NCBI GenBank assembly: GCA_964016885.1
Contig: OZ024740.1
Location: forward strand, 423,150,001-423,214,000
From: Eledone cirrhosa
Lineage: Eukaryota
Reading direction: 5' to 3'
Length of the DNA: 64,000 bases
Shown piece by piece: positions 2,922 through 49,100 of this stretch; position 1 is the stretch's first letter; each line of letters starts with the position of its first letter. Below the pieces are notes generated by a model. It saw nothing but the letters and a program-made list of their open reading frames with translations, did no database searches and was not told where the DNA came from. The position numbers were made by a program, and so were the translations under genes.

Positions 2922-3451
2922 CACATATACATACAGGCAGACACTCACATATACATACAGGCAGACACACACATATACATACAGGCAGACACACATACAT
3001 ATACATACAGGCAGACACTCACATATATATACATTCAGGCAGACACACACATATACATACAGGCAGACACTCACATATACATACAGGAAGACACACACAT
3101 ATACATACAGGCAGACACACACACATATACATACAGCAGACACACACATATACATACAGGCAGACACACACACATATACATACAGGCAGACACTCACATA
3201 TACATACAGGCAGACACACACATATACATACAGGCAGACACACATACATATACATACAGGCAGACACTCACATATATATACATTCAGGCAGACACACACA
3301 TATACATACAGGCAGACACTCACATATACATACAGGAAGACACACACATATACATACAGGCAGACACACACACATATACATACAGCAGACACACACATAT
3401 ACATACAGGCAGACACACACACATATACATACAGGCAGACACTCACATATA
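2922..3451. repeat. 249-bp tandem duplication (also at about 29612-30134; single copy near 24950)
   Basis: ATATATATACATTCAGG and the 23-bp unit TACAGCAGAC each recur at +249 (ORF pairs 3019/3268 and 29702/29951). Confidence 0.9.
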
Positions 3452-6391: not shown

Positions 6392-9300
6392 CACACATAT
6401 ACATACAGGCAGACACACACATATACATACAGGCAGACACACACATAAACATACAGGCAGACACACACATATACATACAGGCATACACTCACATATACAT
6501 ACAGGCAGACACTCACATATACACACAGACAGACACACACATATACAACAGGAAGACACTCACGTATACATACAGGCAGACACACACATATACATACAGG
6601 CAGACACTCACATATACATACAGGCAGACACACACATATACATATACAGAGAGACACACACATATACATACAGGCAGACACTCACATATACATACAGGCA
6701 GACACTCACATATACATACAGGCAGACACTCACATATACATACAGGCAGACACACACATATACATACAGGCAGACACACACATATACATACAGGCAGACA
6801 CTCACACATATACATACAGGCAGACACACACACATACATACAGGTAGACACTCACATATACATACAGGCAGACACTCACATATACATACAGGTAGACACA
6901 CACATATACATACAGGCAGACACTCACATATACATACAGGCATTCACTCACATATACATACGGGCAGACACACACATATACATACAGGCAGACACTCACA
7001 TATACATACAGGCATACGCACACATATATATACAGGCAGACACACACATATACATACAGGAAGACACTCACATACATATACAGGCAGACACTCACATATA
7101 CATACAGGCAGACACACACATATACATACAGGCAGACACACACATATACATACAGGCATACACTCACATATACATACAGGCAGACACTCACATATACATA
7201 CAGGCATACACTCACATATACATACAGGAAGACACTCACATACATATACAGGCAGACACTCACATATACATACAGGCAGACACTCACATATACATACAGG
7301 CAGACACACACATATACATACAGGCAGACACACACATATACATACAGGCATACACTCACATATACATACAGGCAGACACTCACATATACATACAGGCATA
7401 CACTCACATATACATACAGGAAGACACTCACATACATATACAGGCAGACACTCACATATACATACAGGCAGACACTCACATATACATACAGGCAGACACT
7501 CACATATACATACAGGCATACACACACATATATATACAGGCAGACACACACATATACATACAGGCAGACACACACATATACATACAGGCATACACTCACA
7601 TATACATACAGGCAGAAACTCACATATACACACAGACAGACACACACATATACAACAGGAAGACACTCACATATACATACAGGCAGACACACATATATAC
7701 ATACAGGCAGACACTCACATATACATACAGGCAGACACACACATATACATATACAGACAGACACACACATATACATACAGGCAGACACTCACATATACAT
7801 ACAGGCAGACACACACATATACATATACAGGCATACACTCACATATACATACAGGCAGACACTCACATATACATACAGGCAGACACACACATATACATAC
7901 AGGCAGACACACACATATACATAAAAGCAGACACTCACATATACATACAGGCAGACACACACCCATATACATACAGGCATACACTCACATATACATATAC
8001 AGGCATACACTCACATATACATACAGGCAGACACTCACATAAACATACAGGCAGACACTCACACATATATACAGGCAGACATTCACATATACATACAGGC
8101 AGACACACACATATACATAAAAGCAGACACTCACTTATACATACAGGCATACACTCACATATACATACAGGCAGACACACACCCATATACATATACAGGC
8201 AGACACTCACATATACATACAAGCAGACACTCACATATACATACAGGCAGACACACCCATATACATACAGGCATACACTCACATATACATACAGGCAGAC
8301 ACACACCCATATACATATACAGGCAGACACTCACATATACATACAAGCAGACACTCACATATACATACAGGCAGACACTCACATATACATACAGGCAGAC
8401 ACTCACATATACATACAGGCAGACACACACATATACATACAGGCAGACACTCACATATACATACAGGCAGACACTCACATATACATACAGGCAGACACAC
8501 ACATATACATACAGGCAGACACTCACATATACATACAGGCAGACACACACATATACATACAGGCAGACACTCACATATACATACAGGCAGACACTCACAT
8601 ATACATACAGGCAGACACACACATATACATACAGGCAGACACTCACATATACATACAGGCAGACACACACATATACATACAGGCAGACACTCACATATAC
8701 ATACAGGCAGACACACACATATACATACAGGCAGACACTCACACATATACATACATGCAGACACACACACATATATACAGGCATACACTCACATATACAT
8801 ACAGGCAGACACTCACATATACATACAGGCAGACACACACATATACATACAGGCAGACACTCACATATACATACAGGCATACACTCACATATAGATACAG
8901 GCAGACACTCACACATATACATACAGGCAGACACTCACACATATACATACAGGCAGACACACACATATACATACAGGCAGACACACACATATACATACAG
9001 GCAGACACACACATATACATACAGGCAGACACTCACATGTACATACAGGCAGACACTCACATATACATACAGGCATACACACACATATACATACAGGAAG
9101 ACACTCACATATACATATACAGGCAGACACACACATATACATACAGGCAAACACACACATATACATACAGGCATACACACACATATACATACAGGAAGAC
9201 ACTCACATATACATATACAGGCAGACACACACATATACATACAGGCAAACACACACATATACATACTGGCAAACACACACATATACATACAGGAAGACAC

Positions 9301-12300
9301 TCACATATACATACAGGCATACACTCACATATACATACAAGCATACACTCACATATACATACAGGCAGACACACACATATACATACAGGCAGACACACAC
9401 ATATACATAAAAGCAGACACTCACTTATACATACAGGCATACACTCACATATACATACAGGCAGACACATACCCATATACATACAGGCATACACTCACAT
9501 ATACATATACAGGCATACACTCACATATACATACAGGCAGACACTCACATATACATACAGGCAGACACTCACACATATAAACAGGCAGACATTCACATAT
9601 ACATACAGGCAGACACACACATATACATATACAGGCAGACACTCACATATACATACAGGCAGACACTCACATATACATACAGGCATACACTCACATATAC
9701 ATACAGGCAGACACTCACACATATACATACAGGCAGAAACTCACACATATACATACAGGCAGACACACACATATACATACAGGCAGACACACACATATAC
9801 ATACAGGCAGACACTCACACATATACATACAGGCAGACACTCACATATACATACAGGCATACACTCACATATACATACAGGCATACAGTGACATATACAT
9901 ACAGGCAGACACTCACATATACATACAGGCATACACTCACATATACATACAGGCATACACACACATATACATATACAGGCAGACACTCACATATACATAC
10001 AGGCATACACACACATATACATACAGGCATACACACACATATACATACAGGAAGACACTCACATATACATATAGAGGCAGACACACACATATACATACAG
10101 GCAGACACACACATAAACATACAGGAAGACACACACATATACATATACAGGCAGACACACACATATACATACAGGCAAACACACACATATACATACAGGA
10201 AGACACTCACACATACATACAGGCATACACTCACATATACATACAAGCATACACTCACATATACATACAGGCAGACACACACATACATATACAGGCAGAC
10301 ACACACATATACATACAGGCATACACTCACATATACATACAGGCAGACACACACATATACATACAGGCATACACTCACATATACATACAGGCAGACACAC
10401 ACATATACATACAGGCATACACACACATATACATACAGGCAGACACACACATATACATACAGACAGACACACACATATACATACAGGCAGACACTCACAT
10501 ATACATACAGGCAGACACACACATATACATACAGGCATACACACACATATACATACAGGCAGACACACACATATACATACAGGTAGACACACACATATAC
10601 ATACAGGCAGACACTCACATATACATACAGGCAGACACTCACATATACATACAGGCAGACACACACACATATACATACAGGCATACACTCACATATACAT
10701 ACAGGCAGACACTCACATATGCATACAGGCAGACATACACATATACATACAGGCAGACACACACATATACATACAGACACACACACACATATACATACAG
10801 GCATACACTCACATATACATACAGGCAGACACTCACATATGCATACAGGAAGACACTCACACATATGCATACAGGCAGACACTCACATATACATACAGGC
10901 AGACACACACATATACATACAGCCAGACACACACATATACATACAGGCATACACTCACATATACATACAGGCATACACACACATATACATACAGGCAGAC
11001 ACTCACATATACATACAGGCAGACACTCACATATACACACAGACAGACACACACATATACAACAGGAAGACACTCACATATACATACAGGCAGACACACA
11101 CATATACATACAGGCAGACACTCACATATACATACAGGCAGACACACACATATACATACGGGCAGACACACACATATACATACAGGTAGACACACACATA
11201 TACATACAGACACACACACACATATACATACAGGCATACACTCACATATACATACAGGGTGACACTCACATATGCATACAGGCAGACACTCACATATACA
11301 TACAGGCAGACACACACATATATATACAGGCAGACACTCACATACATATACAGACAGACACTCACATATACATACAGGCATACACTCACATATACATACA
11401 GGCAGACACTCACATATACATACAGGCATACACACACATATACATACAGGCATACACTCACATATACATACAGGCAGACACACACATATACATACAGGCA
11501 GACACTCACATGTACATACATGCAGACACACACATATACATACAGGCAGACACACATATATACATACAGGCAGACACACACATATATATAGAGGCAGACA
11601 CTCACACATATACATACAGGCAGACACACACATATACATACAGGCAGACACACACATATACATACAGGCAGACACACACACGTACATACAGGCAGACACA
11701 CACATATACATACAGGCAGACACACACATATACATACAGGCAGACACACACATAAACATACAGGCAGACACACACATATACATACAGGCATACACTCACA
11801 TATACATACAGGCAGACTCTCACATATACACACAGACAGACACACACATATACAACAGGAAGACACTCACGTATACATACAGGCAGACACACACATATAC
11901 ATACAGGCAGACACTCACATATACATACAGGCAGACACACACATATACATATACAGAGAGACACACACATATACATACAGGCAGACACTCACATATACAT
12001 ACAGGCAGACACTCACATATACATACAGGCAGACACTCACATATACATACAGGCAGACACACACATATACATACAGGCAGACACACACATATACATACAG
12101 GCAGACACTCACACATATACATACAGGCAGACACACACACATACATACAGGTAGACACTCACATATACATACAGGCAGACACTCACATATACATACAGGT
12201 AGACACACACATATACATACAGGCAGACACTCACATATACATACAGGCATTCACTCACATATACATACGGGCAGACACACACATATACATACAGGCAGAC

Positions 12301-15300
12301 ACTCACATATACATACAGGCATACGCACACATATATATACAGGCAGACACACACATATACATACAGGAAGACACTCACATACATATACAGGCAGACACTC
12401 ACATATACATACAGGCAGACACACACATATACATACAGGCAGACACACACATATACATACAGGCATACACTCACATATACATACAGGCAGACACTCACAT
12501 ATACATACAGGCATACACTCACATATACATACAGGAAGACACTCACATACATATACAGGCAGACACTCACATATACATACAGGCAGACACTCACATATAC
12601 ATACAGGCAGACACACACATATACATACAGGCAGACACACACATATACATACAGGCATACACTCACATATACATACAGGCAGACACTCACATATACATAC
12701 AGGCATACACTCACATATACATACAGGAAGACACTCACATACATATACAGGCAGACACTCACATATACATACAGGCAGACACTCACATATACATACAGGC
12801 AGACACTCACATATACATACAGGCATACACACACATATATATACAGGCAGACACACACATATACATACAGGCAGACACACACATATACATACAGGCATAC
12901 ACTCACATATACATACAGGCAGAAACTCACATATACACACAGACAGACACACACATATACAACAGGAAGACACTCACATATACATACAGGCAGACACACA
13001 TATATACATACAGGCAGACACTCACATATACATACAGGCAGACACACACATATACATATACAGACAGACACACACATATACATACAGGCAGACACTCACA
13101 TATACATACAGGCAGACACACACATATACATATACAGGCATACACTCACATATACATACAGGCAGACACTCACATATACATACAGGCAGACACACACATA
13201 TACATACAGGCAGACACACACATATACATAAAAGCAGACACTCACATATACATACAGGCAGACACACACCCATATACATACAGGCATACACTCACATATA
13301 CATATACAGGCATACACTCACATATACATACAGGCAGACACTCACATAAACATACAGGCAGACACTCACACATATATACAGGCAGACATTCACATATACA
13401 TACAGGCAGACACACACATATACATAAAAGCAGACACTCACTTATACATACAGGCATACACTCACATATACATACAGGCAGACACACACCCATATACATA
13501 TACAGGCAGACACTCACATATACATACAAGCAGACACTCACATATACATACAGGCAGACACACCCATATACATACAGGCATACACTCACATATACATACA
13601 GGCAGACACACACCCATATACATATACAGGCAGACACTCACATATACATACAAGCAGACACTCACATATACATACAGGCAGACACTCACATATACATACA
13701 GGCAGACACTCACATATACATACAGGCAGACACACACATATACATACAGGCAGACACTCACATATACATACAGGCAGACACTCACATATACATACAGGCA
13801 GACACACACATATACATACAGGCAGACACTCACATATACATACAGGCAGACACACACATATACATACAGGCAGACACTCACATATACATACAGGCAGACA
13901 CTCACATATACATACAGGCAGACACACACATATACATACAGGCAGACACTCACATATACATACAGGCAGACACACACATATACATACAGGCAGACACTCA
14001 CATATACATACAGGCAGACACACACATATACATACAGGCAGACACTCACACATATACATACATGCAGACACACACACATATATACAGGCATACACTCACA
14101 TATACATACAGGCAGACACTCACATATACATACAGGCAGACACACACATATACATACAGGCAGACACTCACATATACATACAGGCATACACTCACATATA
14201 GATACAGGCAGACACTCACACATATACATACAGGCAGACACTCACACATATACATACAGGCAGACACACACATATACATACAGGCAGACACACACATATA
14301 CATACAGGCAGACACACACATATACATACAGGCAGACACTCACATGTACATACAGGCAGACACTCACATATACATACAGGCATACACACACATATACATA
14401 CAGGAAGACACTCACATATACATATACAGGCAGACACACACATATACATACAGGCAAACACACACATATACATACAGGCATACACACACATATACATACA
14501 GGAAGACACTCACATATACATATACAGGCAGACACACACATATACATACAGGCAAACACACACATATACATACTGGCAAACACACACATATACATACAGG
14601 AAGACACTCACATATACATACAGGCATACACTCACATATACATACAAGCATACACTCACATATACATACAGGCAGACACACACATATACATACAGGCAGA
14701 CACACACATATACATAAAAGCAGACACTCACTTATACATACAGGCATACACTCACATATACATACAGGCAGACACATACCCATATACATACAGGCATACA
14801 CTCACATATACATATACAGGCATACACTCACATATACATACAGGCAGACACTCACATATACATACAGGCAGACACTCACACATATAAACAGGCAGACATT
14901 CACATATACATACAGGCAGACACACACATATACATATACAGGCAGACACTCACATATACATACAGGCAGACACTCACATATACATACAGGCATACACTCA
15001 CATATACATACAGGCAGACACTCACACATATACATACAGGCAGAAACTCACACATATACATACAGGCAGACACACACATATACATACAGGCAGACACACA
15101 CATATACATACAGGCAGACACTCACACATATACATACAGGCAGACACTCACATATACATACAGGCATACACTCACATATACATACAGGCATACAGTGACA
15201 TATACATACAGGCAGACACTCACATATACATACAGGCATACACTCACATATACATACAGGCATACACACACATATACATATACAGGCAGACACTCACATA

Positions 15301-17061
15301 TACATACAGGCATACACACACATATACATACAGGCATACACACACATATACATACAGGAAGACACTCACATATACATATAGAGGCAGACACACACATATA
15401 CATACAGGCAGACACACACATAAACATACAGGAAGACACACACATATACATATACAGGCAGACACACACATATACATACAGGCAAACACACACATATACA
15501 TACAGGAAGACACTCACACATACATACAGGCATACACTCACATATACATACAAGCATACACTCACATATACATACAGGCAGACACACACATACATATACA
15601 GGCAGACACACACATATACATACAGGCATACACTCACATATACATACAGGCAGACACACACATATACATACAGGCATACACTCACATATACATACAGGCA
15701 GACACACACATATACATACAGGCATACACACACATATACATACAGGCAGACACACACATATACATACAGACAGACACACACATATACATACAGGCAGACA
15801 CTCACATATACATACAGGCAGACACACACATATACATACAGGCATACACACACATATACATACAGGCAGACACACACATATACATACAGGTAGACACACA
15901 CATATACATACAGGCAGACACTCACATATACATACAGGCAGACACTCACATATACATACAGGCAGACACACACACATATACATACAGGCATACACTCACA
16001 TATACATACAGGCAGACACTCACATATGCATACAGGCAGACATACACATATACATACAGGCAGACACACACATATACATACAGACACACACACACATATA
16101 CATACAGGCATACACTCACATATACATACAGGCAGACACTCACATATGCATACAGGAAGACACTCACACATATGCATACAGGCAGACACTCACATATACA
16201 TACAGGCAGACACACACATATACATACAGCCAGACACACACATATACATACAGGCATACACTCACATATACATACAGGCATACACACACATATACATACA
16301 GGCAGACACTCACATATACATACAGGCAGACACTCACATATACACACAGACAGACACACACATATACAACAGGAAGACACTCACATATACATACAGGCAG
16401 ACACACACATATACATACAGGCAGACACTCACATATACATACAGGCAGACACACACATATACATACGGGCAGACACACACATATACATACAGGTAGACAC
16501 ACACATATACATACAGACACACACACACATATACATACAGGCATACACTCACATATACATACAGGGTGACACTCACATATGCATACAGGCAGACACTCAC
16601 ATATACATACAGGCAGACACACACATATATATACAGGCAGACACTCACATACATATACAGACAGACACTCACATATACATACAGGCATACACTCACATAT
16701 ACATACAGGCAGACACTCACATATACATACAGGCATACACACACATATACATACAGGCATACACTCACATATACATACAGGCAGACACACACATATACAT
16801 ACAGGCAGACACTCACATGTACATACATGCAGACACACACATATACATACAGGCAGACACACATATATACATACAGGCAGACACACACATATATATAGAG
16901 GCAGACACTCACACATATACATACAGGCAGACACACACATATACATACAGGCAGACACACACATATACATACAGGCAGACACACACACGTACATACAGGC
17001 AGACACACACATATACATACAGGCAGACACACACATATACATACAGGCAGACACACACATA
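6392..17061. repeat. Near-identical 5,307-bp tandem duplication inside the satellite (6392-11754 vs 11699-17061)
   Basis: Constant offset of 5307 between ORF pairs (6513/11820, 7935/13242, 9888/15195, 11272/16579) and between rare variants. One difference noticed: A6511 vs T11818. Confidence 0.93.
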
Positions 17062-20000: not shown

Positions 20001-22899
20001 CATATACATACAGGCAGACACACACATATATATACAGGCAGACACTCACACATATACATACAGGCAGACACACACATATACATACAGGCAGACACACACA
20101 TATATATACAGGCAGACACTCACACATATACATACAGGCAGACACACACATATACATACAGGCAGACACACACATATACATACAGGCAGACACACACACG
20201 TACATACAGGCAGACACACACACGTACATACAGGCAGAGACACACATATACATACAGGCAAACACACACATATATATACAGGCAGACACTCACACATATA
20301 CATACAGGCAGACACTCACATATACATACAGGCAGACACACACATATGCATACAGACACACACACACATATACATACAGGCATACACTCACATATACATA
20401 CAGGCAGACACTCACATATGCATACAGGCAGACACTCACACATATACATACAGGCAGACACTCACATATACATACAGGCAGACACACACATATATATACA
20501 GGCAGACACTCACACATATATACATACAGGCATACACTCACATATACATACAGGCATACACTCACATATACATACAGGCAGACACTCACATATGCATACA
20601 GGCAGACACTCACATATACATACAGGCAGACACACACATATATATACAGGCAGACACTCACACATATACATACAGGCAGACACACACATATACATACAGG
20701 CAGACACACACATAAACATACAGGCAGACACACACATAAACATACAGGCAGACACACACATATACATACAGGCATACACTCACATATACATACAGGCAGA
20801 CACTCACATATACACACAGACAGACACACACATATACAACAGGAAGACACTCACATATACATACAGGCAGACACACACATATACATATACAGAGAGACAC
20901 ACACATATACATACAGGCAGACACTCACATATACATACAGGCAGACACACACATATACATATACAGAGAGACACACACATATACATACAGGCAGACACTC
21001 ACATATACATACAGGCAGACACTCACATATACATACAGGCAGACACTCACATATACATACAGGCAGACACACACATATACATACAGGCAGACACACACAT
21101 ATACATACAGGCAGACACTCACACATATACATACAGGCAGACACACACACATACATACAGGTAGACACTCACATATACATACAGGCAGACACTCACATAT
21201 ACATACAGGCAGACACTCACATATACATACAGGCAGACACACACATATACATACGGGCAGACACACACATATACATACAGGCAGACACACACATATACAT
21301 ACAGACACACACATATACATACAGGCATACACTCACATATACATACAGGGTGACACTCACATATGCATACAGGCAGACACTCACACATATGCATACAGGC
21401 AGACACTCACAAATACATACAGGCAGACACACACATATACATACAGGCAGACACTCACATATGCATACAGGCAGACACTCACATATACATACAGGCAGAC
21501 ACACACATATACATACAGGCAGACACTCACACATATGCATACAGGCTGACACTCACACATATACATACAGGCAGACACACACATATACATACAGGCAGAC
21601 ACTCACATATACATACAGGCAGACACACACATATACATACAGGCAGACACTCACATGTACATACAGGCATACACTCACATATACATACAGGCAGACACTC
21701 ACATATACATACAGGCATACACACACATATACATACAGGCAGACACACACACATATACATACAGGCAGACACTCACATGTACATACAGGCAGACACACAC
21801 ATATACATACAGGCAGACACACACATATACATACAGGCAGACACACATATATACATACAGGCAGACACACACATATATATACAGGCAGACACTCACACAT
21901 ATACATACAGGCAGACACACACATATACATACAGGCAGACACACACATATACATACAGGCAGACACACACATATACATACAGGCAGACACACACACGTAC
22001 ATACAGGCAGACACACACATATACATACAGGCAGACATACACATATACATACAGGCAGACACACACATATATATACAGGCAGACACACACATATACATAC
22101 AGGCAGACACACACATATACATACAGGCAGACACACACATATACATACAGGCAGACACTCACATGTACATACAGGTAGACACACACATATACATACAGGC
22201 AGACACACATATATACATACAGGCAGACACTCACATATACATACAGGCAGACACACACATATACATATACAGACAGACACACACATATACATACAGGCAG
22301 ACACTCACATATACATACAGGCAGACACACACATATACATATACAGACAGACACAAACATATACATACAGGTACACACTCACATATACATACAGGCAGAC
22401 ACACATATATACATACAGGCAGACATACACATATACATACAGGCAGACACTCACATATACATACAGGCAGACACTCACATATACATACAGGCAGACACTC
22501 ACATATACATACAGGCAGACACACACATATACATATACAGGCATACACTCACATATACATACAGGCAGACACTCACATATACATACAGGCACACACACAC
22601 ATATACATACAGGCAGACACACACATATACATACAGGCAGACACTCACATATACATACAGGCACACACACACATATACATACAGGCAGACACACACATAT
22701 ACATACAGGCAGACACTGACACATATACATACAGGCATACACTCACATATACATACAGGCAGACACACACATATACATACAGGCAGACACACACATATAC
22801 ATACGGGCAGACACACACATATACATACAGGCAGACACACACATATACATACAGGCAGACACACACCCATATACATACAGGCAGACACACACATATACA

Positions 22900-25800
22900 T
22901 ACAGGCAGACACACACATATACATACAGGCAGACACTCACACATATACATACAGGCAGACACTCACATATACATACAGGCATACACTCACATATACATAC
23001 AGGCATACACTGACATATACATACAGGCAGACACTCACATATACATACAGGCATACACTCACATATACATACAGGCATACACACACATATACATATACAG
23101 GCAGACACTCACATATACATACAGGCATACACACACATATACATACAGGCATACACACACATATACATACAGGCATACACACACATATACATACAGGAAG
23201 ACACTCACATATACATATACAGGCAGACACACACATATACATACAGGCAGACACACACATAAACATACAGGAAGACACTCACATATACATATACAGGCAG
23301 ACACACACATATACATACAGGCAAACACACACATATACATACAGGAAGACACTCACATATACATACAGGCATACACTCACATATACATACAAGCATACAC
23401 TCACATATACATACAGGCAGACACACACATACATATACAGGCAGACACTCACATATACATACAGGCAGACACACACATATACATACAGGCATACACTCAC
23501 ATATACATACAGGCAGACACACACATATACATACAGGCATACACACACATATACATACAGGCAGACACACACATATACATACAGACAGACACACACATAT
23601 ACATACAGGCAGACACTCACATATACATACAGGCAGACACACACATATACATACAGGCAGACACACACCCATATACATACAGGCAGACACACACATATAC
23701 ATAGAGGCAGACACTCACATACATATACATACAGGCAGACACACAAATATACATACAGGCAGACACACACATATACATATAGGCAGACACACACACATAT
23801 ACATACAGGCAGACACACACATATACATACAGGTATACACTCACATACATATACAGGCAGACACTCACATATACATACAGGCAGACACACACATATACAT
23901 ACAGGTAGACACACACATATACATACAGGCAGACACTCACATATACATACAGGCAGACACTCACATATACATACAGGCAGACACACACATATACATACAG
24001 GCAGACACTCACATATACATACAGGCAGACACTCACATATACATACAGGCAGACACTGACACATATACATACAGGCATACACTCACATATACATACAGGC
24101 AGACACTCACATATGCATACAGGCAGACACACACATATACATACAGGCAGACACACACATATACATACAGACAAACACACACATATACATACAGGCATAC
24201 ACTCACATATACATACAGGCAGACACTCACATATGCATACAGGCAGACACTCACACATATGCATACAGGCATACACTCACATATACATACAGGCAGACAC
24301 ACACATATACATACAGGCAGATACACACATATACATACAGGCATACACTCACATATACATACAGGCAGACACTCACATATACATACAGGCAGTCACACAC
24401 ATATACATACAGGCAGACACACACATATACATACAGGCAGACACTCACATATACATACAGGCAGACACACACATATACATACAGGCAGACACACACCCAT
24501 ATACATACAGGCAGACACACACATATACATAGAGGCAGACACTCACATACATATACATACAGGCAGACACACAAATATACATACAGGCAGACACACACAT
24601 ATACATATAGGCAGACACACACACATATACATACAGGCAGACACACACATATACATACAGGTATACACTCACATACATATACAGGCAGACACTCACATAT
24701 ACATACAGGCAGACACACACATATACATACAGGCAGTCACTCACATATACATACAGGCAGACACACACATATACATACAGGCATACACACACATATACAT
24801 ACAGGCAGACACACACATATACATACAGACAGACACACACAGACATACAGGCAGACACTCACATATACATACAGGCAGACACTCACATATACATACAGGC
24901 AGACACACACATATACATACAGGCAGACACACATACATATACATACAGGCAGACACTCACATATATATACATTCAGGCAGACACACACATATACATACAG
25001 GCAGACACTCACATATACATACAGGAAGACACACACATATACATACAGGCAGACACACACACATATACATACAGCAGACACACACATATACATACAGGCA
25101 GACACACACACATATACATACAGGCAGACACTCACATATACATACAGGCAGACACACACATATACATACAGGCAGACACACACATATACATACAGGCATA
25201 CACTCACATATACATACAGGCAGACACTCACATATAAATACAGGCAGACACACACATATACATACAGGCATACACTCACATATACATACAGGCAGACACA
25301 CACATATACATACAGGCAGACACACACATATACATATACAGGCAGACACTCACATATACATACAGGCAGACACACACCCATATACATACAGGCAGACACA
25401 CCCATATACATACAGGCAGACACACACATATACATACAGGAAGACACACATATATACATACAGGCAGACACTCACATATACATACAGGCAGACACACACA
25501 TATACATACAGGCAGACACACACATATACATACAGGCATACACTCACATATACATACAGGTAGACACACATATATACATACAGGCAGACACTCACATATA
25601 CATACAGGCAGACACACACATATACATACAGGCAGACACACACATATACATACAGGCAGACACACACATATACATACAGGCATACACTCACATATACATA
25701 CAGGTAGACACACACATATACATACAGGCAGACACACCCATATACATACAGGCAGACACACCCATATACATACAGGCAGACACTCACATATACATACAGG

Positions 25801-26707
25801 CAGACACTCACATATACATACAGGCAGACACACACATATACATACAGGCAGATACACACATATACATACAGGCAGACACACACATATACATACAGGCATA
25901 CACTCACATATACATACAGGCATACACTCACATATACATACAGGCAGACACTGACACATATACATACAGGCAGTCACACACATATACATACAGGCAGACA
26001 CACACATATACATACAGACAGACACACACATATACATACAGGCAGACACTCACATATACATACAGGCAGACACACACATATACATACAGGCAGACACTCA
26101 CATATACATACAGGCAGACATTCCCATATACATACAGGCATACACTCACATATACATACAGGCAGACATTCCCATATACATACAGGCAGAAACTCACATA
26201 TACATACAGGCAGACACACACATATACATACAGGCAGACACACACATATACATAAAAGCAGACACTCACTTATACATACAGGCATACACTCACATATACA
26301 TACAGGCAGACACACACCCATATACATACAGGCATACACTCACATATACATATACAGGCATACACTCACATATACATACAGGCAGACACTCACATAAACA
26401 TACAGGCAGACACTCACACATATATACAGGCAGACATTCACATATACATACAGGCATACACTCACATATACATACAGGCAGACACACACCCATATACATA
26501 TACAGGCAGACACTCACATATACATACAAGCAGACACTCACATATACATACAGGCAGACACACCCATATACATACAGGCATACACTCACATATACATACA
26601 GGCAGACACACACATATACATACAGGCAGACACTCACATATACATACAGGCAGACACTCACATATACATACAGGCAGACACATATACATACAGGCAGACA
26701 CTCACAT
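22900..26707. repeat. Further diverged copy of the ~4-5 kb sub-block at about 1300-4900
   Basis: ORF pairs 1367/22937, 2271/24113, 2507/24445, 3491/25276, 4023/25928 and 4653/26462. Shared variants include ATAGAGG, CAAATAT, CATTCAGG and ATTCCCAT. Boundaries are approximate. Confidence 0.8.
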
Positions 26708-29700
26708 ATACATACAGGCAGACACACACATATACATACAGGCAGACACTCACATATACATACAGGCAGACACTCACATATACATACAGGCAGACACACA
26801 CATATACATACAGGCAGACACTCACATATACATACAGGCAGACACACACATATACATACAGGCAGACACTCACATATACATACAGGCAGACACACACATA
26901 TACATACAGGCAGACACTCACACATATACATACAGGCAGACACACACACATATATACAGGCATACACTCACATATACATACAGGCAGACACTCACATATA
27001 CATACAGGCAGACACACACATATACATACAGGCAGACACTCACATATACATACAGGCATACACTCACATATAGATACAGGCAGACACTCACACATATACA
27101 TACAGGCAGACACTCACACATATACATACAGGCAGACACACACATATACATACAGGCAGACACACACATATACATACAGGCAGATACTCACACATATACA
27201 TACAGGCAGACACTCACATATACATACAGGCATACACTCACATATACATACAGGCATACACTCACATATACATACAGGCAGACACTCACATATACATACA
27301 GGCATACACTCACATATTCATACAGGCATACACACACATATACATATACATATACAGGCAGACACTCACATATACATACAGGCATACACACACATATACA
27401 TACAGGCATACACACACATATACATACAGGAAGACACTCACATATACATATACAGGCAGACACACACATATACATACAGGCAAACACACACATATACATA
27501 CAGGAAGACACTCACATATACATACAGGCATACACTCACATATACATACAAGCATACACTCACATATACATACAGGCAGACACACACATATACATACAGG
27601 CAGACACACACATATACATAAAAGCAGACACTCACTTATACATACAGGCATACACTCACATATACATACAGGCAGACACACACCCATATACATACAGGCA
27701 TACACTCACATATACATATACAGGCATACACTCACATATACATACAGGCAGACACTCACATATACATACAGGCAGACACTCACACATATATACAGGCAGA
27801 CATTCACATATACATACAGGCAGACACACACATATACATATACAGGCAGACACTCACATATACATACAAGCAGACACTCACATATACATACAGGCAGACA
27901 CTCACATATACATTCAGGCAGACACTCACATATACATACAGGCATACACTCACATATACATACAGGCAGACACTCACACATATACATACAGGCAGACACT
28001 CACACATATACATACAGGCAGACACACACATATACATACAGGCAGACACACACATATACATACAGGCAGACACTCACACATATACATACAGGCAGACACT
28101 CACATATACATACAGGCATACACTCACATATACATACAGGCATACACTGACATATACATACAGGCAGACACTCACATATACATACAGGCATACACTCACA
28201 TATACATACAGGCATACACACACATATACATATACAGGCAGACACTCACATATACATACAGGCATACACACACATATACATACAGGCATACACACACATA
28301 TACATACAGGAAGACACTCACATATACATATACAGGCAGACACACACATATACATACAGGCAGACACACACATAAACATACAGGAAGACACTCACATATA
28401 CATATACAGGCAGACACACACATATACATACAGGCAAACACACACATATACATACAGGAAGACACTCACATATACATACAGGCAGACACACACATACATA
28501 TACAGGCAGACACTCACATATACATACAGGCAGACACACACATATACATACAGGCATACACTCACATATACATACAGGCAGACACACACATATACATACA
28601 GGCATACACACACATATACATACAGGCAGACACACACATATACATACAGACAGACACACACATATACATACAGGCAGACACTCACATATACATACAGGCA
28701 GACACACACATATACATACAGGCATACACACACATATACATACAGGCAGACACACACATATACATACAGGTAGACACACACATATACATACAGGCAGACA
28801 CTCACATATACATACAGGCAGACACTCACATATACATACAGGCAGACACACACATATACATACAGGCAGACACTCACATATACATACAGGCAGACACTCA
28901 CATATACATACAGGCAGACACTGACACATATACATACAGGCATACACTCACATATACATACAGGCAGACACTCACATATGCATACAGGCAGACACACACA
29001 TATACATACAGGCAGACACACACATATACATACAGACAAACACACACATATACATACAGGCATACACTCACATATACATACAGGCAGACACTCACATATG
29101 CATACAGGCAGACACTCACACATATGCATACAGGCAGACACTCACATATACATACAGGCAGTCACACACATATACATACAGGCAGACACACACATATACA
29201 TACAGGCAGACACTCACATATACATACAGGCAGACACACACATATACATACAGGCAGACACACACCCATATACATACAGGCAGACACACACATATACATA
29301 GAGGCAGACACTCACATACATATACATACAGGCAGACACACAAATATACATACAGGCAGACACACACATATACATATAGGCAGACACACACACATATACA
29401 TACAGGCAGACACACACATATACATACAGGTATACACTCACATACATATACAGGCAGACACTCACATATACATACAGGCAGACACACACATATACATACA
29501 GGCAGTCACTCACATATACATACAGGCAGACACACACATATACATACAGGCATACACACACATATACATACAGGCAGACACACACATATACATACAGACA
29601 GACACACACAGACATACAGGCAGACACTCACATATACATACAGGCAGACACACACATATACATACAGGCAGACACACATACATATACATACAGGCAGACA

Positions 29701-30758
29701 CTCACATATATATACATTCAGGCAGACACACACATATACATACAGGCAGACACTCACATATACATACAGGAAGACACACACATATACATACAGGCAGACA
29801 CACACACATATACATACAGCAGACACACACATATACATACAGGCAGACACACACACATATACATACAGGCAGACACTCACATATACATACAGGCAGACAC
29901 ACACATATACATACAGGCAGACACACATACATATACATACAGGCAGACACTCACATATATATACATTCAGGCAGACACACACATATACATACAGGCAGAC
30001 ACTCACATATACATACAGGAAGACACACACATATACATACAGGCAGACACACACACATATACATACAGCAGACACACACATATACATACAGGCAGACACA
30101 CACACATATACATACAGGCAGACACTCACATATAAATACAGGCAGACACACACATATACATACAGGCATACACTCACATATACATACAGGCAGACACACA
30201 CATATACATACAGGCAGACACACACATATACATATACAGGCAGACACTCACATATACATACAGGCAGACACACACCCATATACATACAGGCAGACACACC
30301 CATATACATACAGGCAGACACACACATATACATACAGGAAGACACACATATATACATACAGGCAGACACTCACATATACATACAGGCAGACACACACATA
30401 TACATACAGGCAGACACACACATATACATACAGGCAGACACACACATATACATACAGGCATACACTCACATATACATACAGGTAGACACACACATATACA
30501 TACAGGCAGACACACCCATATACATACAGGCAGACACACCCATATACATACAGGCAGACACTCACATATACATACAGGCAGACACTCACATATACATACA
30601 GGCAGACACACACATATACATACAGGCAGATACACACATATACATACAGGCAGACACACACATATACATACAGGCATACACTCACATATACATACAGGCA
30701 TACACTCACATATACATACAGGCAGACACTGACACATATACATACAGGCAGACACATG

Positions 30759-30790
30759 GTGGCTGCCAACTCGTTTTCGAGTACGGCCAC
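30759..30790 (-). other. 3'-terminal stem-loop of the insertion (putative RT recognition structure)
   Basis: Minus strand GTGGC-CGT-ACTCG-AAAA-CGAGT-TGGCA-GCCAC gives two 5-bp stems around a 4-nt loop, ending 2 nt from the element 3' end. A second hairpin, GTAGG-GGTTCT-CCTAC (30820-30805), overlaps the stop codon. Confidence 0.65.
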
Positions 30791-30816
30791 TACTTTATAT
30801 CCATGTAGGAGAACCC

Positions 30817-30924
30817 CTACCGAAGCGCTGCATGAGTGTGACTTTTTAGTCCAGCCAGCGACTTGAAAACTCTGGTACAAACACTACACTTGTGACAATT
30901 ATTGACACATAGTGCTGGGCCCAT
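30817..30924 (-). pseudogene. Relic of a retroelement ORF C-terminus with a C2H2-like zinc finger: MGPALCVNNCHKCSVCTRVFKSLAGLKSHTHAALR*
   Basis: Hand translation (below the ORF-track length cutoff). The frame is open from 30990 to TAG at 30819-30817. Spacing is C-x2-C-x3-F-x5-L-x2-H, but the last ligand is not at canonical H-x3-H spacing. A CxxC..S..GL.SH motif just before the stop is what I recall for the end of many RTE ORFs. Confidence 0.6.
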
Positions 30925-30972
30925 GGTACCATGTGAGGACAAGTGCAGAGAGATCTCCAGATATAAAGCAAT

Positions 30973-31206
30973 GCCTGTGCCGTGAAGCTTTTATAGTGAG
31001 CAAAGGCACTGCACAAAGCCAGTCCCACTCTCTTAACCAAGATGATATTTACCAAAAAGAAGAACAAGTCAACATCATTGGATACCATCAAGGTTGCAGG
31101 AGTTATATCAGAGTTTTCCTTCTCCTAGAATTCTGCCTTGACAAAGGCTAAGGGGTCATCTCTCCCGGTGATTTTGGATGGCCATTGACTCTTAAGAGCT
31201 CCTTTG
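30973..31206 (-). other. RTE-type 5'UTR-like segment of the insertion
   Basis: Minus-strand motifs CTTAGCCTTTGTCAAGGCAG (31152-31133, containing a GCCTT/AAGGC hairpin), CTAGGAGAAGGAAAACTCTGATATAA (31128-31103) and GTGCAGTGCCTTTGCTCACTATAAAAGCTTCACGGCACAGGC (31014-30973) resemble blocks I recall from RTE 5' regions. Not verified by search. Confidence 0.6.
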
Positions 31207-34200
31207 GACACTCACATATACATACAGGCATACACTCACATATAGATACAGGCAGACACTCACACATATACATACAGGCATACACTCACATATACATACA
31301 GGCATACACACACATATACATATACAGGCAGACACTCACATATACATACAGGCAGACACACACATAAACATACAGGAAGACACTCACATATACATATACA
31401 GGCAGACACACACATATACATACAGGCAAACACACACATATACATACAGGAAGACACTCACATATACATACAGGCATACACTCACATATACATACAAGCA
31501 TACACTCACATATACATACAGGCAGACACACACATACATATACAGGCAGACACACACATACATATACAGGCAGACACTCACATATACATACAGGCAGACA
31601 CACACATATACATACAGGCATACACTCACATATACATACAGGCAGACACACACATATACATACAGGCATACACACACATATACATACAGGCAGACACACA
31701 CATATACATACAGACAGACACACACATATACATACAGGCAGACACTCACATATACATACAGGCAGACACACACATATACATACAGGCATACACACACATA
31801 TACATACAGGCAGACACACACATATACATACAGGTAGACACACACATATACATACAGGCAGACACACACATATACATACAGGCAGACACTCACATATACA
31901 TACAGGCATACACTCACATATACATACAGGCAGACACTCACATATACATACAGGCAGACACTCACATATACATACAGGCATACACACACATATACATACA
32001 GGCATACACACACATATACATACAGGCATACACACACATATACATACAGGCATACACTCACATATACATACAGGCAGACACACACATATACATACAGGCA
32101 TACACTCACATATACATACAGGCAGACTCACACATATACATACAGGCAGACACTCACATGTACATACAGGCAGACACACACATATACATACAGGCAGACA
32201 CACACATATACATACAGGCAGACACACACATATACATACAGGCAGACACACACATATACATACAGGCAGACACACACATATACATACAGACAGATACACA
32301 CATATATATACAGGCAGACACTCACACATATACATACAGGCAGACACTCACATATACATACAGGCAGACACACACATATATATACAGGCAGACACTCACA
32401 CATATACATACAGGCAGACACACACATATACATACAGGCAGACACACACATAAACATACAGGCAGACACACACATATACATACAGGCATACACTCACATA
32501 TACATACAGGCAGACACTCACATATACACACAGACAGACACACACATATACAACAGGAAGACACTCACGTATACATACAGGCAGACACACACATATACAT
32601 ACAGGCAGACACTCACATATACATACAGGCAGACACACACATATACATATACAGAGAGACACACACATATACATACAGGCAGACACTCACATATACATAC
32701 AGGCAGACACTCACATATACATACAGGCAGACACTCACATATACATACAGGCAGACACACACATATACATACAGGCAGACACACACATATACATACAGGC
32801 AGACACTCACACATATACATACAGGCAGACACACACACATACATACAGGTAGACACTCACATATACATACAGGCAGACACTCACATATACATACAGGTAG
32901 ACACACACATATACATACAGGCAGACACTCACATATACATACAGGCATTCACTCACATATACATACGGGCAGACACACACATATACATACAGGCAGACAC
33001 TCACATATACATACAGGCATACGCACACATATATATACAGGCAGACACACACATATACATACAGGAAGACACTCACATACATATACAGGCAGACACTCAC
33101 ATATACATACAGGCAGACACACACATATACATACAGGCAGACACACACATATACATACAGGCATACACTCACATATACATACAGGCAGACACTCACATAT
33201 ACATACAGGCATACACTCACATATACATACAGGAAGACACTCACATACATATACAGGCAGACACTCACATATACATACAGGCAGACACTCACATATACAT
33301 ACAGGCAGACACACACATATACATACAGGCAGACACACACATATACATACAGGCATACACTCACATATACATACAGGCAGACACTCACATATACATACAG
33401 GCATACACTCACATATACATACAGGAAGACACTCACATACATATACAGGCAGACACTCACATATACATACAGGCAGACACTCACATATACATACAGGCAG
33501 ACACTCACATATACATACAGGCATACACACACATATATATACAGGCAGACACACACATATACATACAGGCAGACACACACATATACATACAGGCATACAC
33601 TCACATATACATACAGGCAGAAACTCACATATACACACAGACAGACACACACATATACAACAGGAAGACACTCACATATACATACAGGCAGACACACATA
33701 TATACATACAGGCAGACACTCACATATACATACAGGCAGACACACACATATACATATACAGACAGACACACACATATACATACAGGCAGACACTCACATA
33801 TACATACAGGCAGACACACACATATACATATACAGACAGACACAAACATATACATACAGGCACACACTCACATATACATACAGGCAGACACACATATATA
33901 CATACAGGCAGACATACACATGTATATATAGGCAGACACTCACATACATATACAGGCATACACTCACATATACATACAGGCAGACACTCACATATACATA
34001 CAGGCAGACACACACATATACATATACAGGCATACACTCACATATACATACAGGCAGACACTCACATATACATACAGGCAGACACACACATATACATACA
34101 GGCAGACACACACATATACATAAAAGCAGACACTCACATATACATACAGGCAGACACACACCCATATACATACAGGCATACACTCACATATACATATACA

Positions 34201-42284: not shown

Positions 42285-42775
42285 ACAGGGTGACACTCAC
42301 ATATGCATACAGGCAGACACTCACACATATACATACAGGCAGACACACACATATACATACAGGCAGACACTCACATATACATACAGGGTGACACTCACAT
42401 ATGCATACAGGCTGACACTCACACATATACATACAGGCAGACACACACATATACATACAGGCAGACACTCACATATACATACAGGGTGACACTCACATAT
42501 GCATACAGGCAGACACTCACACATATACATACAGGCAGACACACACATATACATACAGGCATACACTCACATATACATACAGGGTGACACTCACATATGC
42601 ATACAGGCAGACACTCACACATATACATACAGGCAGACACACACATATACATACAGGCATACACTCACATATACATACAGGGTGACACTCACATATGCAT
42701 ACAGGCTGACACTCACACATATACATACAGGCAGACACACACATATACATACAGGCAGACACTCACATATACATA
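42285..42775. repeat. 98-bp four-unit higher-order repeat, 5 copies
   Basis: The variant GGGTGAC starts at 42288, 42386, 42484, 42582 and 42680 (24+24+24+26 bp). Confidence 0.92.
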
Positions 42776-45700
42776 CAGGCAGACACACACATATACATAC
42801 AGGCAGACACTCACATGTACATACAGGCATACACTCACATATACATACAGGCAGACACTCACATATACATACAGGCATACACACACATATACATACAGGC
42901 AGACACACACACATATACATACAGGCAGACACTCACATGTACATACAGGCAGACACACACATATACATACAGGCAGACACACACATATACATACAGGCAG
43001 ACACACATATATACATACAGGCAGACACACACATATATATACAGGCAGACACTCACACATATACATACAGGCAGACACACACATATACATACAGGCAGAC
43101 ACACACATATACATACAGGCAGACACACACATATACATACAGGCAGACACACACACGTACATACAGGCAGACACACACATATACATACAGGCAGACACAC
43201 ACATATACATACAGGCAGACACACACATATATATACAGGCAGACACACACATATACATACAGGCAGACACTCACATGTACATACAGGTAGACACACACAT
43301 ATACATACAGGCAGACACACATATATACATACAGGCAGACACTCACATATACATACAGGCAGACACACACATATACATATACAGACAGACACACACATAT
43401 ACATACAGGCAGACACTCACATATACATACAGGCAGACACACACATATACATATACAGACAGACACAAACATATACATACAGGTACACACTCACATATAC
43501 ATACAGGCAGACACACATATATACATACAGGCAGACATACACATATACATACAGGCAGACACTCACATATACATACAGGCAGACACTCACATATACATAC
43601 AGGCAGACACTCACATATACATACAGGCAGACACACACATATACATATACAGGCATACACTCACATATACATACAGGCAGACACTCACATATACATACAG
43701 GCACACACACACATATACATACAGGCAGACACACACATATACATACAGGCAGACACTCACATATACATACAGGCACACACACACATATACATACAGGCAG
43801 ACACACACATATACATACAGGCAGACACTGACACATATACATACAGGCATACACTCACATATACATACAGGCAGACACACACATATACATACAGGCAGAC
43901 ACACACATATACATACGGGCAGACACACACATATACATACAGGCAGACACTGACACATATACACACAGACAGACACACACATATACATACAGGCAGACAC
44001 TCACATATACATACAGGCAGACACACACATATACATACAGGCAGACACACACATATACATACAGGCAGACACTGACACATATACATACAGGCATACACTC
44101 ACATATACATACAGGCATACACTCACATATACATACAGGCAGACACTCACATATGCATACAGGCAGACACTCACATATACATACAGGCAGACACACACAT
44201 ATACATACAGGCAGACACTCACACATATGCATACAGGCTGACACTCACACATATACATACAGGCAGACACACACATATACATACAGGCAGACACTCACAT
44301 ATACATACAGGCAGACACACACATATACATACAGGCAGACACTCACATGTACATACAGGCATACACTCACATATACATACAGGCAGACACTCACATATAC
44401 ATACAGGCATACACACACATATACATACAGGCAGACACACACACATATACATACAGGCAGACACTCACATGTACATACAGGCAGACACACACATATACAT
44501 ACAGGCAGACACACACATATACATACAGGCAGACACACACATATACATACAGGCAGACACACACATATATATACAGGCAGACACACACATATATACATAC
44601 AGGCAGACACACACATATATATACAGGCAGACACTCACACATATACATACAGGCAGACACACACATATACATACAGGCAGACACACACATATACATACAG
44701 GCAGACACACACATATACATACAGGCAGACACACACACGTACATACAGGCAGACACACACATATACATACAGGCAGACACACACATATACATACAGGCAG
44801 ACACACACATATATATACAGGCAGACACACACATATACATACAGGCAGACACACACATATACATACAGGCAGACACACACATATACATACAGGCAGACAC
44901 TCACATGTACATACAGGTAGACACACACATATACATACAGGCAGACACACATATATACATACAGGCAGACACTCACATATACATACAGGCAGACACACAC
45001 ATATACATATACAGACAGACACACACATATACATACAGGCAGACACTCACATATACATACAGGCAGACACACACATATACATATACAGACAGACACAAAC
45101 ATATACATACAGGTACACACTCACATATACATACAGGCAGACACACATATATACATACAGGCAGACATACACATATACATACAGGCAGACACTCACATAT
45201 ACATACAGGCAGACACTCACATATACATACAGGCAGACACTCACATATACATACAGGCAGACACACACATATACATATACAGGCATACACTCACATATAC
45301 ATACAGGCAGACACTCACATATACATACAGGCACACACACACATATACATACAGGCAGACACACACATATACATACAGGCAGACACTCACATATACATAC
45401 AGGCACACACACACATATACATACAGGCAGACACACACATATACATACAGGCAGACACTGACACATATACATACAGGCATACACTCACATATACATACAG
45501 GCAGACACACACATATACATACAGGCAGACACACACATATACATACGGGCAGACACACACATATACATACAGGCAGACACTGACACATATACACACAGAC
45601 AGACACACACATATACATACAGGCAGACACTCACATATACATACAGGCAGACACACACATATACATACAGGCAGACACACACATATACATACAGGCAGAC

Positions 45701-48700
45701 ACTGACACATATACATACAGGCATACACTCACATATACATACAGGCATACACTCACATATACATACAGGCAGACACTCACATATGCATACAGGCAGACAC
45801 TCACATATACATACAGGCAGACACACACATATACATACAGGCAGACACACACATATACCTACAGGCAGACACTCATACATATACATACAGGCAGACACAC
45901 ACACATACATACAGGCAGACACTCACATATACATACAGGCATACACTCACATATACATACAGGCAGACACTCACATATGCATACAGGCAGACACTCACAT
46001 ATACATACAGGCAGACACTCACATATACATACAGGTAGACACACACATATACATACAGGCAGACACTCACATATACATACAGGCAGACACTCACATATAC
46101 ATACAGGCAGACACATACATATACATACGGGCAGACACACACATATACATACAGGCAGACACACACATATACATACAGACACACACACACATATACATAC
46201 AGGCATACACTCACATATACATACAGGCAGACACTCACATATGCATACAGGCAGACACTCACACATATGCATACAGGCAGACACTCACATATACATACAG
46301 GCAGACACACACATATACATACAGGCAGACACACACATATACATACAGGCAGACACTCACACATATGCATACAGGCAGACACTCACACATATACATACAG
46401 GCAGACACACACATATACATACAGGCAGACACTCACATATACATACAGGCAGACACACACATATACATATACAGACAGACACACACATATACATACAGGC
46501 AGACACTCACATATACATACAGGCAGACACACACATATACATATACAGACAGACACAAACATATACATACAGGCACACACTCACATATACATACAGGCAG
46601 ACACACACATATACATACGGGCAGACACACACATATACATACAGGCAGACACACACATATACATACAGACACACACATATACATACAGGCATACACTCAC
46701 ATATACATACAGGGTGACACTCACATATGCATACAGGCAGACACTCACACATATGCATACAGGCTGACACTCACACATATACATACAGGCAGACACACAC
46801 ATATACATACAGGCAGACACTCACATATACATACAGGCAGACACACACATATACATACAGGCAGACACTCACATGTACATACAGGCATACACTCACATAT
46901 ACATACAGGCAGACACTCACATATACATACAGGCATACACACACATATACATACAGGCAGACACACACACATATACATACAGGCAGACACTCACATGTAC
47001 ATACAGGCAGACACACACATATACATACAGGCAGACACACACATATACATACAGGCAGACACACATATATACATACAGGCAGACACACACATATATATAC
47101 AGGCAGACACTCACACATATACATACAGGCAGACACACACATATACATACAGGCAGACACACACATATACATACAGGCAGACACACACATATACATACAG
47201 GCAGACACACACACGTACATACAGGCAGACACACACATATACATACAGGCAGACACACACATATACATACAGGCAGACACACACATATATATACAGGCAG
47301 ACACACACATATACATACAGGCAGACACACACATATACATACAGGCAGACACACACATATACATACAGGCAGACACTCACATGTACATACAGGTAGACAC
47401 ACACATATACATACAGGCAGACACACATATATACATACAGGCAGACACTCACATATACATACAGGCAGACACACATATACATATACAGACAGACACACAC
47501 ATATACATACAGGCAGACACTCACATATACATACAGGCAGACACACACATATACATATACAGACAGACACAAACATATACATACAGGTACACACTCACAT
47601 ATACATACAGGCAGACACACATATATACATACAGGCAGACATACACATATACATACAGGCAGACACTCACATATACATACAGGCAGACACTCACATATAC
47701 ATACAGGCAGACACTCACATATACATACAGGCAGACACACACATATACATATACAGGCATACACTCACATATACATACAGGCAGACACTCACATATACAT
47801 ACAGGCACACACACACATATACATACAGGCAGACACACACATATACATACAGGCAGACACTCACATATACATACAGGCACACACACACATATACATACAG
47901 GCAGACACACACATATACATACAGGCAGACACTGACACATATACATACAGGCATACACTCACATATACATACAGGCAGACACACACATATACATACAGGC
48001 AGACACACACATATACATACGGGCAGACACACACATATACATACAGGCAGACACTGACACATATACACACAGACAGACACACACATATACATACAGGCAG
48101 ACACTCACATATACATACAGGCAGACACACACATATACATACAGGCAGACACACACATATACATACAGGCAGACACTGACACATATACATACAGGCATAC
48201 ACTCACATATACATACAGGCATACACTCACATATACATACAGGCAGACACTCACATATGCATACAGGCAGACACTCACATATACATACAGGCAGACACAC
48301 ACATATACATACAGGCAGACACACACATATACCTACAGGCAGACACTCATACATATACATACAGGCAGACACACACACATACATACAGGCATACACTCAC
48401 ATATACATACAGGCATACACTCACATATACATACAGGCAGACACTCACATATGCATACAGGCAGACACTCACATATACATACAGGCAGACACTCACATAT
48501 ACATACAGGTAGACACACACATATACATACAGGCAGACACTCACATATACATACAGGCAGACACTCACATATACATACAGGCAGACACATACATATACAT
48601 ACGGGCAGACACACACATATACATACAGGCAGACACACACATATACATACAGACACACACACACATATACATACAGGCATACACTCACATATACATACAG

Positions 48701-49100
48701 GCAGACACTCACATATGCATACAGGCAGACACTCACACATATGCATACAGGCAGACACTCACATATACATACAGGCAGACACTCACGTATGCATACAGGC
48801 AGACACTCACATATACATACAGGCAGACACACACATATACATACAGGCAGACACTCACACATATGCATACAGGCAGACACTCACACATATACATACAGGC
48901 AGACACACACATATACATACAGGCAGACACTCACATATACATACAGGCAGACACACACATATACATATACAGACAGACACACACATATACATACAGGCAG
49001 ACACTCACATATACATACAGGCAGACACACACATATACATATACAGACAGACACAAACATATACATACAGGCACACACTCACATATACATACAGGCAGAC
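42700..49100. repeat. Three tandem relatives (about 1.6, 2.5 and 2.5 kb) of the block at about 21540-22838
   Basis: Offsets of 1630 (43343/44973, 44153/45783) and 2474-2526 (45047/47521, 45783/48257, 44219/46745). Marker variants are GGCTGAC, CAAACAT..GGTACAC and ATACCTAC. Boundaries are approximate. Confidence 0.82.

Follow-up and report, generated by a model that had tools for sequence, protein, structure and literature searches.

Deletions of target DNA have been described for insertions of LINEs (long interspersed nuclear elements) and of the elements that they mobilise, such as L1, Alu, SVA and ZfL2-2. In these, the 3' end of the element looks intact, the 5' end is truncated, and target DNA is lost on the 5' side. 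According to PMC2666801, truncation of the target arises on this side, the second strand being cut or trimmed upstream, and the deletions made by ZfL2-2 in Ku70-null cells measure 343-50,187 bp. Those associated with human L1, Alu and SVA insertions are reported in PMC4859970 to range from a few bp to 1 Mb. A comparable structure is found in Eledone cirrhosa, in a 64,000-bp stretch of satellite DNA (assembly GCA_964016885.1, contig OZ024740.1, positions 423,150,001 to 423,214,000), hereafter the window. Here a 450-bp insert (30757-31206, minus strand), likely a 5'-truncated retroposon related to RTE-type LINEs to judge from its sequence, is found in place of about 1.1 kb of satellite, a loss falling inside the ZfL2-2 range. 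Insertion-mediated deletions lack a true target-site duplication (TSD), and the insert is flanked by the 5-bp sequence GACAC, which is matched by chance at many positions of this repeat, as described below. The locus departs from those described in its element, which is RTE-like and not of the L1 or L2 type, in its target, a tandem satellite, and in its empty site, for which an internal paralogue takes the place of an orthologue. An insertion-mediated deletion by an RTE-type element inside a satellite was not met in a literature search that had most subscription papers outside its scope.

Two other systems are close. R1 and R2 are also non-LTR insertions in a tandem array, the rDNA, and possible upstream target deletions and microhomologies of 1-5 nt are mentioned for their 5'-truncated copies in PMC2718515. 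R1 and R2 are site-specific, whereas the one insertion present in 64 kb here shows no sign of targeting. Endonuclease-independent L1 insertions, as presented in PMC1920257, similarly have no TSD, delete target DNA and carry extra DNA foreign to the element. They are defined by 3' truncation, whereas the insert analysed here appears to keep its 3' end.

Structure of the insertion site

The window includes a duplicated block of satellite DNA. Block A spans positions 1 to ~22,867, and its counterpart, C plus B, spans 22,868-44,000, B alone extending from 26,708 to ~44,000. Copy C (22,868-27,108) lies directly before B, and is an older copy of the A stretch 1,298-5,275. The insert is found in B. 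Its left flank (29612-30756, plus strand) is identical to A 2929-4073 over 1,145 bp (offset 26683), and its right flank (31207-33835, plus strand) matches A 5202-7830 with one substitution, B 31207-32331 being identical to A 5202-6326 over 1,125 bp (offset 26005), with 1,503 further bp after the substitution. The pairing of both flanks with A is unambiguous, because the next-best exact matches in the window measure only 50 bp at the left end and 74 bp at the right end. The satellite segment A 4074-5201 (plus strand; 1,128 bp, 47 units in phase) has no counterpart in B. In its place are 450 bp of foreign DNA (45% GC), no 13-mer of which recurs in the window on either strand. A preliminary description of this DNA had given the two offsets and the limits of the missing segment, and all are confirmed to the base. 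The distance between markers measures 4,874 bp in A, against 4,172 bp in B; subtracting 450 from the latter and adding 1,128 gives 4,850, and the residual 24 bp correspond to a separate one-unit indel. The net effect at the B site is -678 bp, more satellite having been removed than DNA added. As A and C keep the segment, the pre-insertion site is known, and is longer than the filled one; both junctions map to the base.

The direction of the change is set by copy C, whose stretch 25974-27108 (plus strand) is an older paralogue of the missing segment and serves as outgroup. Over 412 bp it tracks the left flank, beyond which it runs into the segment and aligns there to A over 1,037 bp, with 3 substitutions and 6 indels. 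Because C retains the segment, the change is a loss in B, and a gain in A is ruled out. A can accordingly be used as an internal empty site, as had been proposed in the preliminary description. Placing the event after the A/B duplication, as was also done there, is borne out by the retention of the segment in C and by the lack, in the window, of an empty site with adjacent flanks. Around the insertion site, 7 substitutions (0.07%) and 3 small indels separate A from B over 10,602 aligned bp. The A/B split is thus very recent. A better paralogue, with the two flanks adjacent, had been indicated as one case that would count against the claim. None of the 8 junction registers tried occurs in the window, where no better empty site is found. 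Repair of the A segment by recent conversion from a C-like donor was considered, and is ruled out by divergence: A and C show 9 differences in 1,037 bp of the segment, A and B 10 in 10,602 bp (p 1.4e-5).

An assembly artefact might produce the same layout, either by a join skipping 47 units, or if A and B were two alleles set in tandem. The satellite is long, and a 5,243-bp stretch nearby is duplicated with 0 mismatches. In both flanks, however, unit variants follow each other in the correct order up to unique sequence able to anchor reads, and an artefact is very improbable. Even with A and B as alleles misplaced in tandem, A would serve as empty site all the same, and only the statement on timing would change.

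The GACAC sequence is located at 30751-30755 on the left and at 31207-31211 on the right of the insert (plus strand). In A, the left copy is at 4068 and the right one at 5202, 1,134 bp or 47 units apart. Among 3,757 A positions downstream of the putative nick taken as arbitrary right breakpoints, ~1,900 (50.6%) yield an apparent TSD of at least 5 bp; pseudo-TSDs of 5-6 bp are found at 9.5% of the positions, and of 7-15 bp at 23.1%. At such a frequency GACAC is evidence neither of a TSD nor of in-register priming, and has been discarded in both roles, in agreement with the preliminary description, which had regarded it as uninformative in this repeat. A true TSD at the insert would be just 5-6 bp long, under the 7-15 bp given as typical of RTE LINEs in PMC6007223.

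The probable LINE-type 3' end of the insert

The 3' end of the insert is at the left junction, and the 5' end at the right one. The minus strand encodes the last 42 codons of a LINE-type open reading frame (ORF; 30817-30945), which include a C2H2 finger (CSVC...SLAGLKSH). Six residues separate this finger from the stop codon, at 30819-30817. The remaining 60 bp (30757-30816, minus strand) make up a 3' untranslated region (UTR), which hosts a short hairpin (30769-30782) and ends with CAGCCACCA at the junction, with no long tail. The hairpin is predicted and weak (z -1.79; an equally good fold is obtained from 9 of 200 shuffled sequences). Hairpin and terminal CAGCCACCA are, we assume, similar to RTE 3' ends, and slight support comes from a read-through ending in P0023. 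The left junction carries no more than two CCA, or one ATG, and no TSD of at least 7 bp is seen, short of the microsatellite-like 3' tail and the TSD of 7-15 bp that are the norm for RTE LINEs (PMC6007223).

A search of 1.84 billion proteins with the insert gave 23 matches, two of which (P0011 and P0018) are C-terminal fragments of LINE ORFs. P0011, used as query, led to 10 longer proteins; nine carry an RVT_1 domain, and five of these nine an APE endonuclease domain as well. The motif SL[AS]GL[KR]SH is found in 11 of the 33 proteins fetched (P0011, P0018 and the nine RVT_1 proteins), in each case with 6-19 residues left to the C-terminus, and is absent from the other 22. A motif of this type is present in the insert, 6 residues before the stop. 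A profile of these 11 LINE proteins, of the reverse transcriptase (RT)/APE type, matches the end of the insert ORF at E 1.3e-7 (hmmsearch), a value that is not an independent test, as the profile was seeded from matches to the insert. The frameshift-aware score of the finger region is 44.2, versus 14.1 +/- 1.9 for shuffled sequences, none of 100 reaching 44.2. By profile match, motif and distance to the stop, the C-terminus of the insert ORF resembles that of single-ORF APE+RT elements. Such elements (P0024-P0032, P0011, P0018) feature three C-terminal C2H2 fingers, SLAGLKSH near the stop and a short 3' UTR; they presumably belong to the RTE clade, a label that we base on their single-ORF APE+RT anatomy and on a thumb motif. 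Unlike them, the insert holds no RT or endonuclease. LINE-type reverse transcriptases were also met in records whose titles describe them as bacterial or archaeal metagenome-assembled genomes (P0030 and loci L001-L005); these are probably eukaryotic contigs that were misbinned.

The 5' moiety of the insert

The other 261 bp of the insert (30946-31206, minus strand) have no identified homology, and are interrupted by stops in all three minus-strand frames. Searched for LINE coding sequence, they score no better than shuffled sequences, 30 of 100 being as good on the minus strand and 61 of 100 on the plus strand; the latter figure led us to discard an inverted (twin-primed) LINE piece. A decayed RT, suggested by a weak YKSF..ALLY resemblance (score 15.6), was similarly discarded, as shuffled sequences did as well in 5 of 30 and in 30 of 100 cases. 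Pfam, word-index and Atlas searches on the 261 bp returned nothing usable. Generic fingers were obtained from Atlas, as was a lipocalin lead for a plus-strand ORF, which was sub-threshold and was dismissed. Scans of the insert for tRNAs (ARAGORN), Rfam families and RNA polymerase III (pol III) A and B boxes found none. Internal inverted repeats do not exceed chance expectation (7-10 of 60 shuffles), and the fold of the whole insert has a z of -1.51. Two perfect palindromes, again not clearly above chance, are located at 30922-30933 (12 bp), near the limit of LINE homology, and at 31189-31198 (10 bp), 8 bp from the 5' junction.

Because the insertion is younger than the 0.07% divergence, the stops in the 261 bp came with the template. 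The template was probably non-autonomous, as no frame is open upstream of the finger although the insertion is very young. The insert consists of ~190 nt of LINE-like sequence and of 261 bp without match. RTE-tailed SINEs (short interspersed nuclear elements) have, according to PMC3747384, only the last 100-200 nt in common with the LINE, a length similar to that of the LINE-like part of the insert. They and other non-autonomous derivatives are marked by a tRNA or 5S head or by pol III boxes, and by many homogeneous copies. In the insert, whose 5' end may be truncated, no tRNA head, pol III boxes or tandem tail beyond two CCA are seen, and the one window analysed includes a single copy. Truncated RTE 3' ends are described as abundant in genomes (PMC2887409). 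The likeliest reading is that the insert is a non-autonomous, RTE-tailed (SINE-like) element, or a chimeric transcript, mobilised in trans, and the 261 bp could represent the body of an element of the former type not described so far. A decayed, divergent LINE may have the same appearance.

The 261 bp without match, the ORF closed in spite of its youth and the missing long tail would be found also if the break came first, that is, if a resected double-strand break in the satellite had been patched by endonuclease-independent capture of the retroposon RNA, or with sequence copied from a dead genomic copy. In the set of endonuclease-independent L1 insertions reported in PMC1920257, 18 of 21 delete target DNA (5-14,534 bp), and additional DNA foreign to L1 is present in 15 of 21. 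A truncated 3' end is the defining trait of these events. At the locus analysed here the junction falls 60 bp past the stop, just beyond the hairpin, which is what would be expected of an RTE-type 3' end, an expectation that is partly our own assumption. A repair origin is for these reasons decidedly unlikely.

Origin of the deletion

The reading that we prefer, to which a probability of roughly 0.6 can be assigned, is that an RTE-related retroposon inserted in B by target-primed reverse transcription, and that the 1,128 bp on its 5' side were lost in the same integration. The insert reads on the minus strand and its 3' end lies at the left junction, which puts the deletion on the 5' side of the element; the lost DNA lies to the right of the 3' junction, and exactly at the 5' junction. 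A nick in the plus strand, at about the A-equivalent of 4072/4073, would have primed cDNA synthesis from the RNA's 3' end, to which the terminal finger, the stop and the 60-bp UTR seen at the left junction would correspond. Synthesis would have halted after 450 nt, and the other genomic end, cut or resected 1.1 kb away, would have been end-joined to the cDNA. No true TSD would be left by this process, and the segment kept in A and C would be missing from B, as it is. The preliminary description had listed three causes, insertion-mediated deletion, capture during double-strand-break repair and later unequal exchange. Loss on the 5' side favours the first, and the three are not fully separable from one sequence. 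Priming of the second strand on a distant repeat unit, also put forward there, finds no evidence here, the phase carrying no signal and microhomology being visible only against the element's own 5' sequence.

A further reading is that the periodic target re-paired 47 units off after the first nick, so that the second cut (or priming), with an ordinary stagger of 5-6 bp, took place on a distant unit. This register slip receives no positive support from the phase test, and is given little credit. The agent would be an undescribed, recently active family of RTE-tailed non-autonomous elements.

How often an unrelated deletion would end next to the insert can be gauged from the other length changes between A and B. 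They number 16 in 16,441 bp: fifteen measure 2-222 bp, and the other is a gain of 5,307 bp. An independent breakpoint is expected within the first unit to the right of the insert with a chance of 0.9-2.3% for events of any size, and of 0.15% for events of at least 1 kb, a rate that rests on one event; within 6 bp of the insert the chance falls to 0.04%.

These figures bear on the possibility that an ordinary insertion, with a TSD of 5-6 bp, was followed by the in-register loss of 47 units, with the left breakpoint in the first unit by the element. The loss might be due to unequal exchange, single-strand annealing or slippage, and its breakpoint would perhaps be placed in that unit by branch migration stopping at the heterology. 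Exactly 47 units separate the two GACAC copies, and between the two sites the first unit varies at only one base in 24; in-register A/B indels are frequent, and an older deletion of 1,002 bp is found ~60 bp away. In-phase spacing, however, is expected about half the time by chance, and no other A/B indel is sized between 222 bp and 5.3 kb. A TSD under the usual 7-15 bp is required, as is a breakpoint 5-24 bp from the insert, for which the chance is 0.04-0.15% in the case of an event of at least 1 kb. Later in-register loss is on these grounds unlikely.

After the normal insertion of a longer element, one non-homologous deletion might have taken 1.1 kb of flank together with the TSD and the 5' part of the element. 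A single event would then account for the truncation and for the lack of both TSD and flank. This deletion must have been non-homologous, with one end inside the element, and must have taken place in the short time since the A/B split (0.07%); nearly all other A/B indels are unit-register events, and 5' truncation is routine at insertion according to PMC2887409 and PMC2718515. The hypothesis is improbable.

Several points, besides the narrow basis of the rate for kilobase events, weigh against an insertion coupled to the deletion. Deletions of kilobase scale arise in register in this array without any insertion, as shown by the 1,002-bp example, which is common to A and B and lies ~56-74 bp to the right of the insert junction. 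Whether the breakpoint falls at the junction or inside the first unit is decided by a single base, the sixth of the right flank, and the A/C divergence is slightly higher in the segment than in the flank (p 0.04). Long truncations by ZfL2-2 are reported in 0 of 25 insertions in wild-type DT40 cells, and in 5 of 25 in cells without Ku70 (PMC2666801), and ~2% of human-specific L1 insertions are stated to delete any target DNA (PMC1920257). The prior for a coupled deletion is just a few-fold above the coincidence rate. The identity of the insert is similarly exposed, as its assignment to LINEs is drawn from ~42 codons with a generic finger. The Pfam zf-C2H2 match has an E of 0.002, under the curated cut-off, and 21 of the 23 proteins matched are unrelated generic finger proteins. 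Word-index protein searches with two insert ORFs gave no match, the exact 22-base pattern of the 3' UTR had 0 matches in the genome contig collection searched for a close DNA relative, and five loci fetched through the LINE alignment are distant (26-30%) and have no similarity to the insert. All considered, the odds favour one insertion-plus-deletion event a few-fold, though not overwhelmingly.

Organization of the satellite array

The whole window (1-64000, plus strand) is an array of ~2,640 units of a 24-bp satellite, all in one orientation, since a 9-base satellite core is present in 1,770 copies on one strand and in 0 on the other. The 450-bp insert is the sole non-satellite stretch found. 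Mapping of the window by exact matches revealed 4-5 kb higher-order repeats, and a block of 21-27 kb that is duplicated. Between its two copies (1-22867 versus 22868-44000) unit-register indels, about 1 per 1-3 kb, are as common as substitutions.

The older deletion of ~1,002 bp, also in register, is located at 5258-5276 in A and 31263-31281 in B, and is defined relative to the higher-order copy at 8912-9913. The site, close to the insert junction, may be prone to local instability. At 6512-11754 and 11819-17061 there is a tandem duplication of 5,307 bp, which shows 0 mismatches in 5,243 bp and is absent from block B; it is either extremely recent or an assembly artefact. Three to four more sub-repeats of 1.5-2.5 kb, nearly identical to each other, with exact runs of up to 986 bp, are found at 42690-48782, and represent a separate local expansion.

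Conclusions

The insert and the accompanying deletion are most likely an instance of a by-product of retrotransposition that is uncommon but well known. The case would gain wider importance only if many such insertions deleted whole runs of units in register, which one case cannot show. If the register slip were true, retroposition into satellites would routinely delete or duplicate runs of units, and would drive the turnover of higher-order repeats. The frequency of unit-register indels in the A/B block duplication is in itself a direct measure of satellite turnover. The locus is a natural example, provided with two internal controls (the empty site A and the outgroup C), of a retroposon removing more satellite than it added. 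It indicates that a LINE-related element has been active within the last 0.07% of divergence, and the insert supplies a unique, polarised marker in an otherwise unmappable array.

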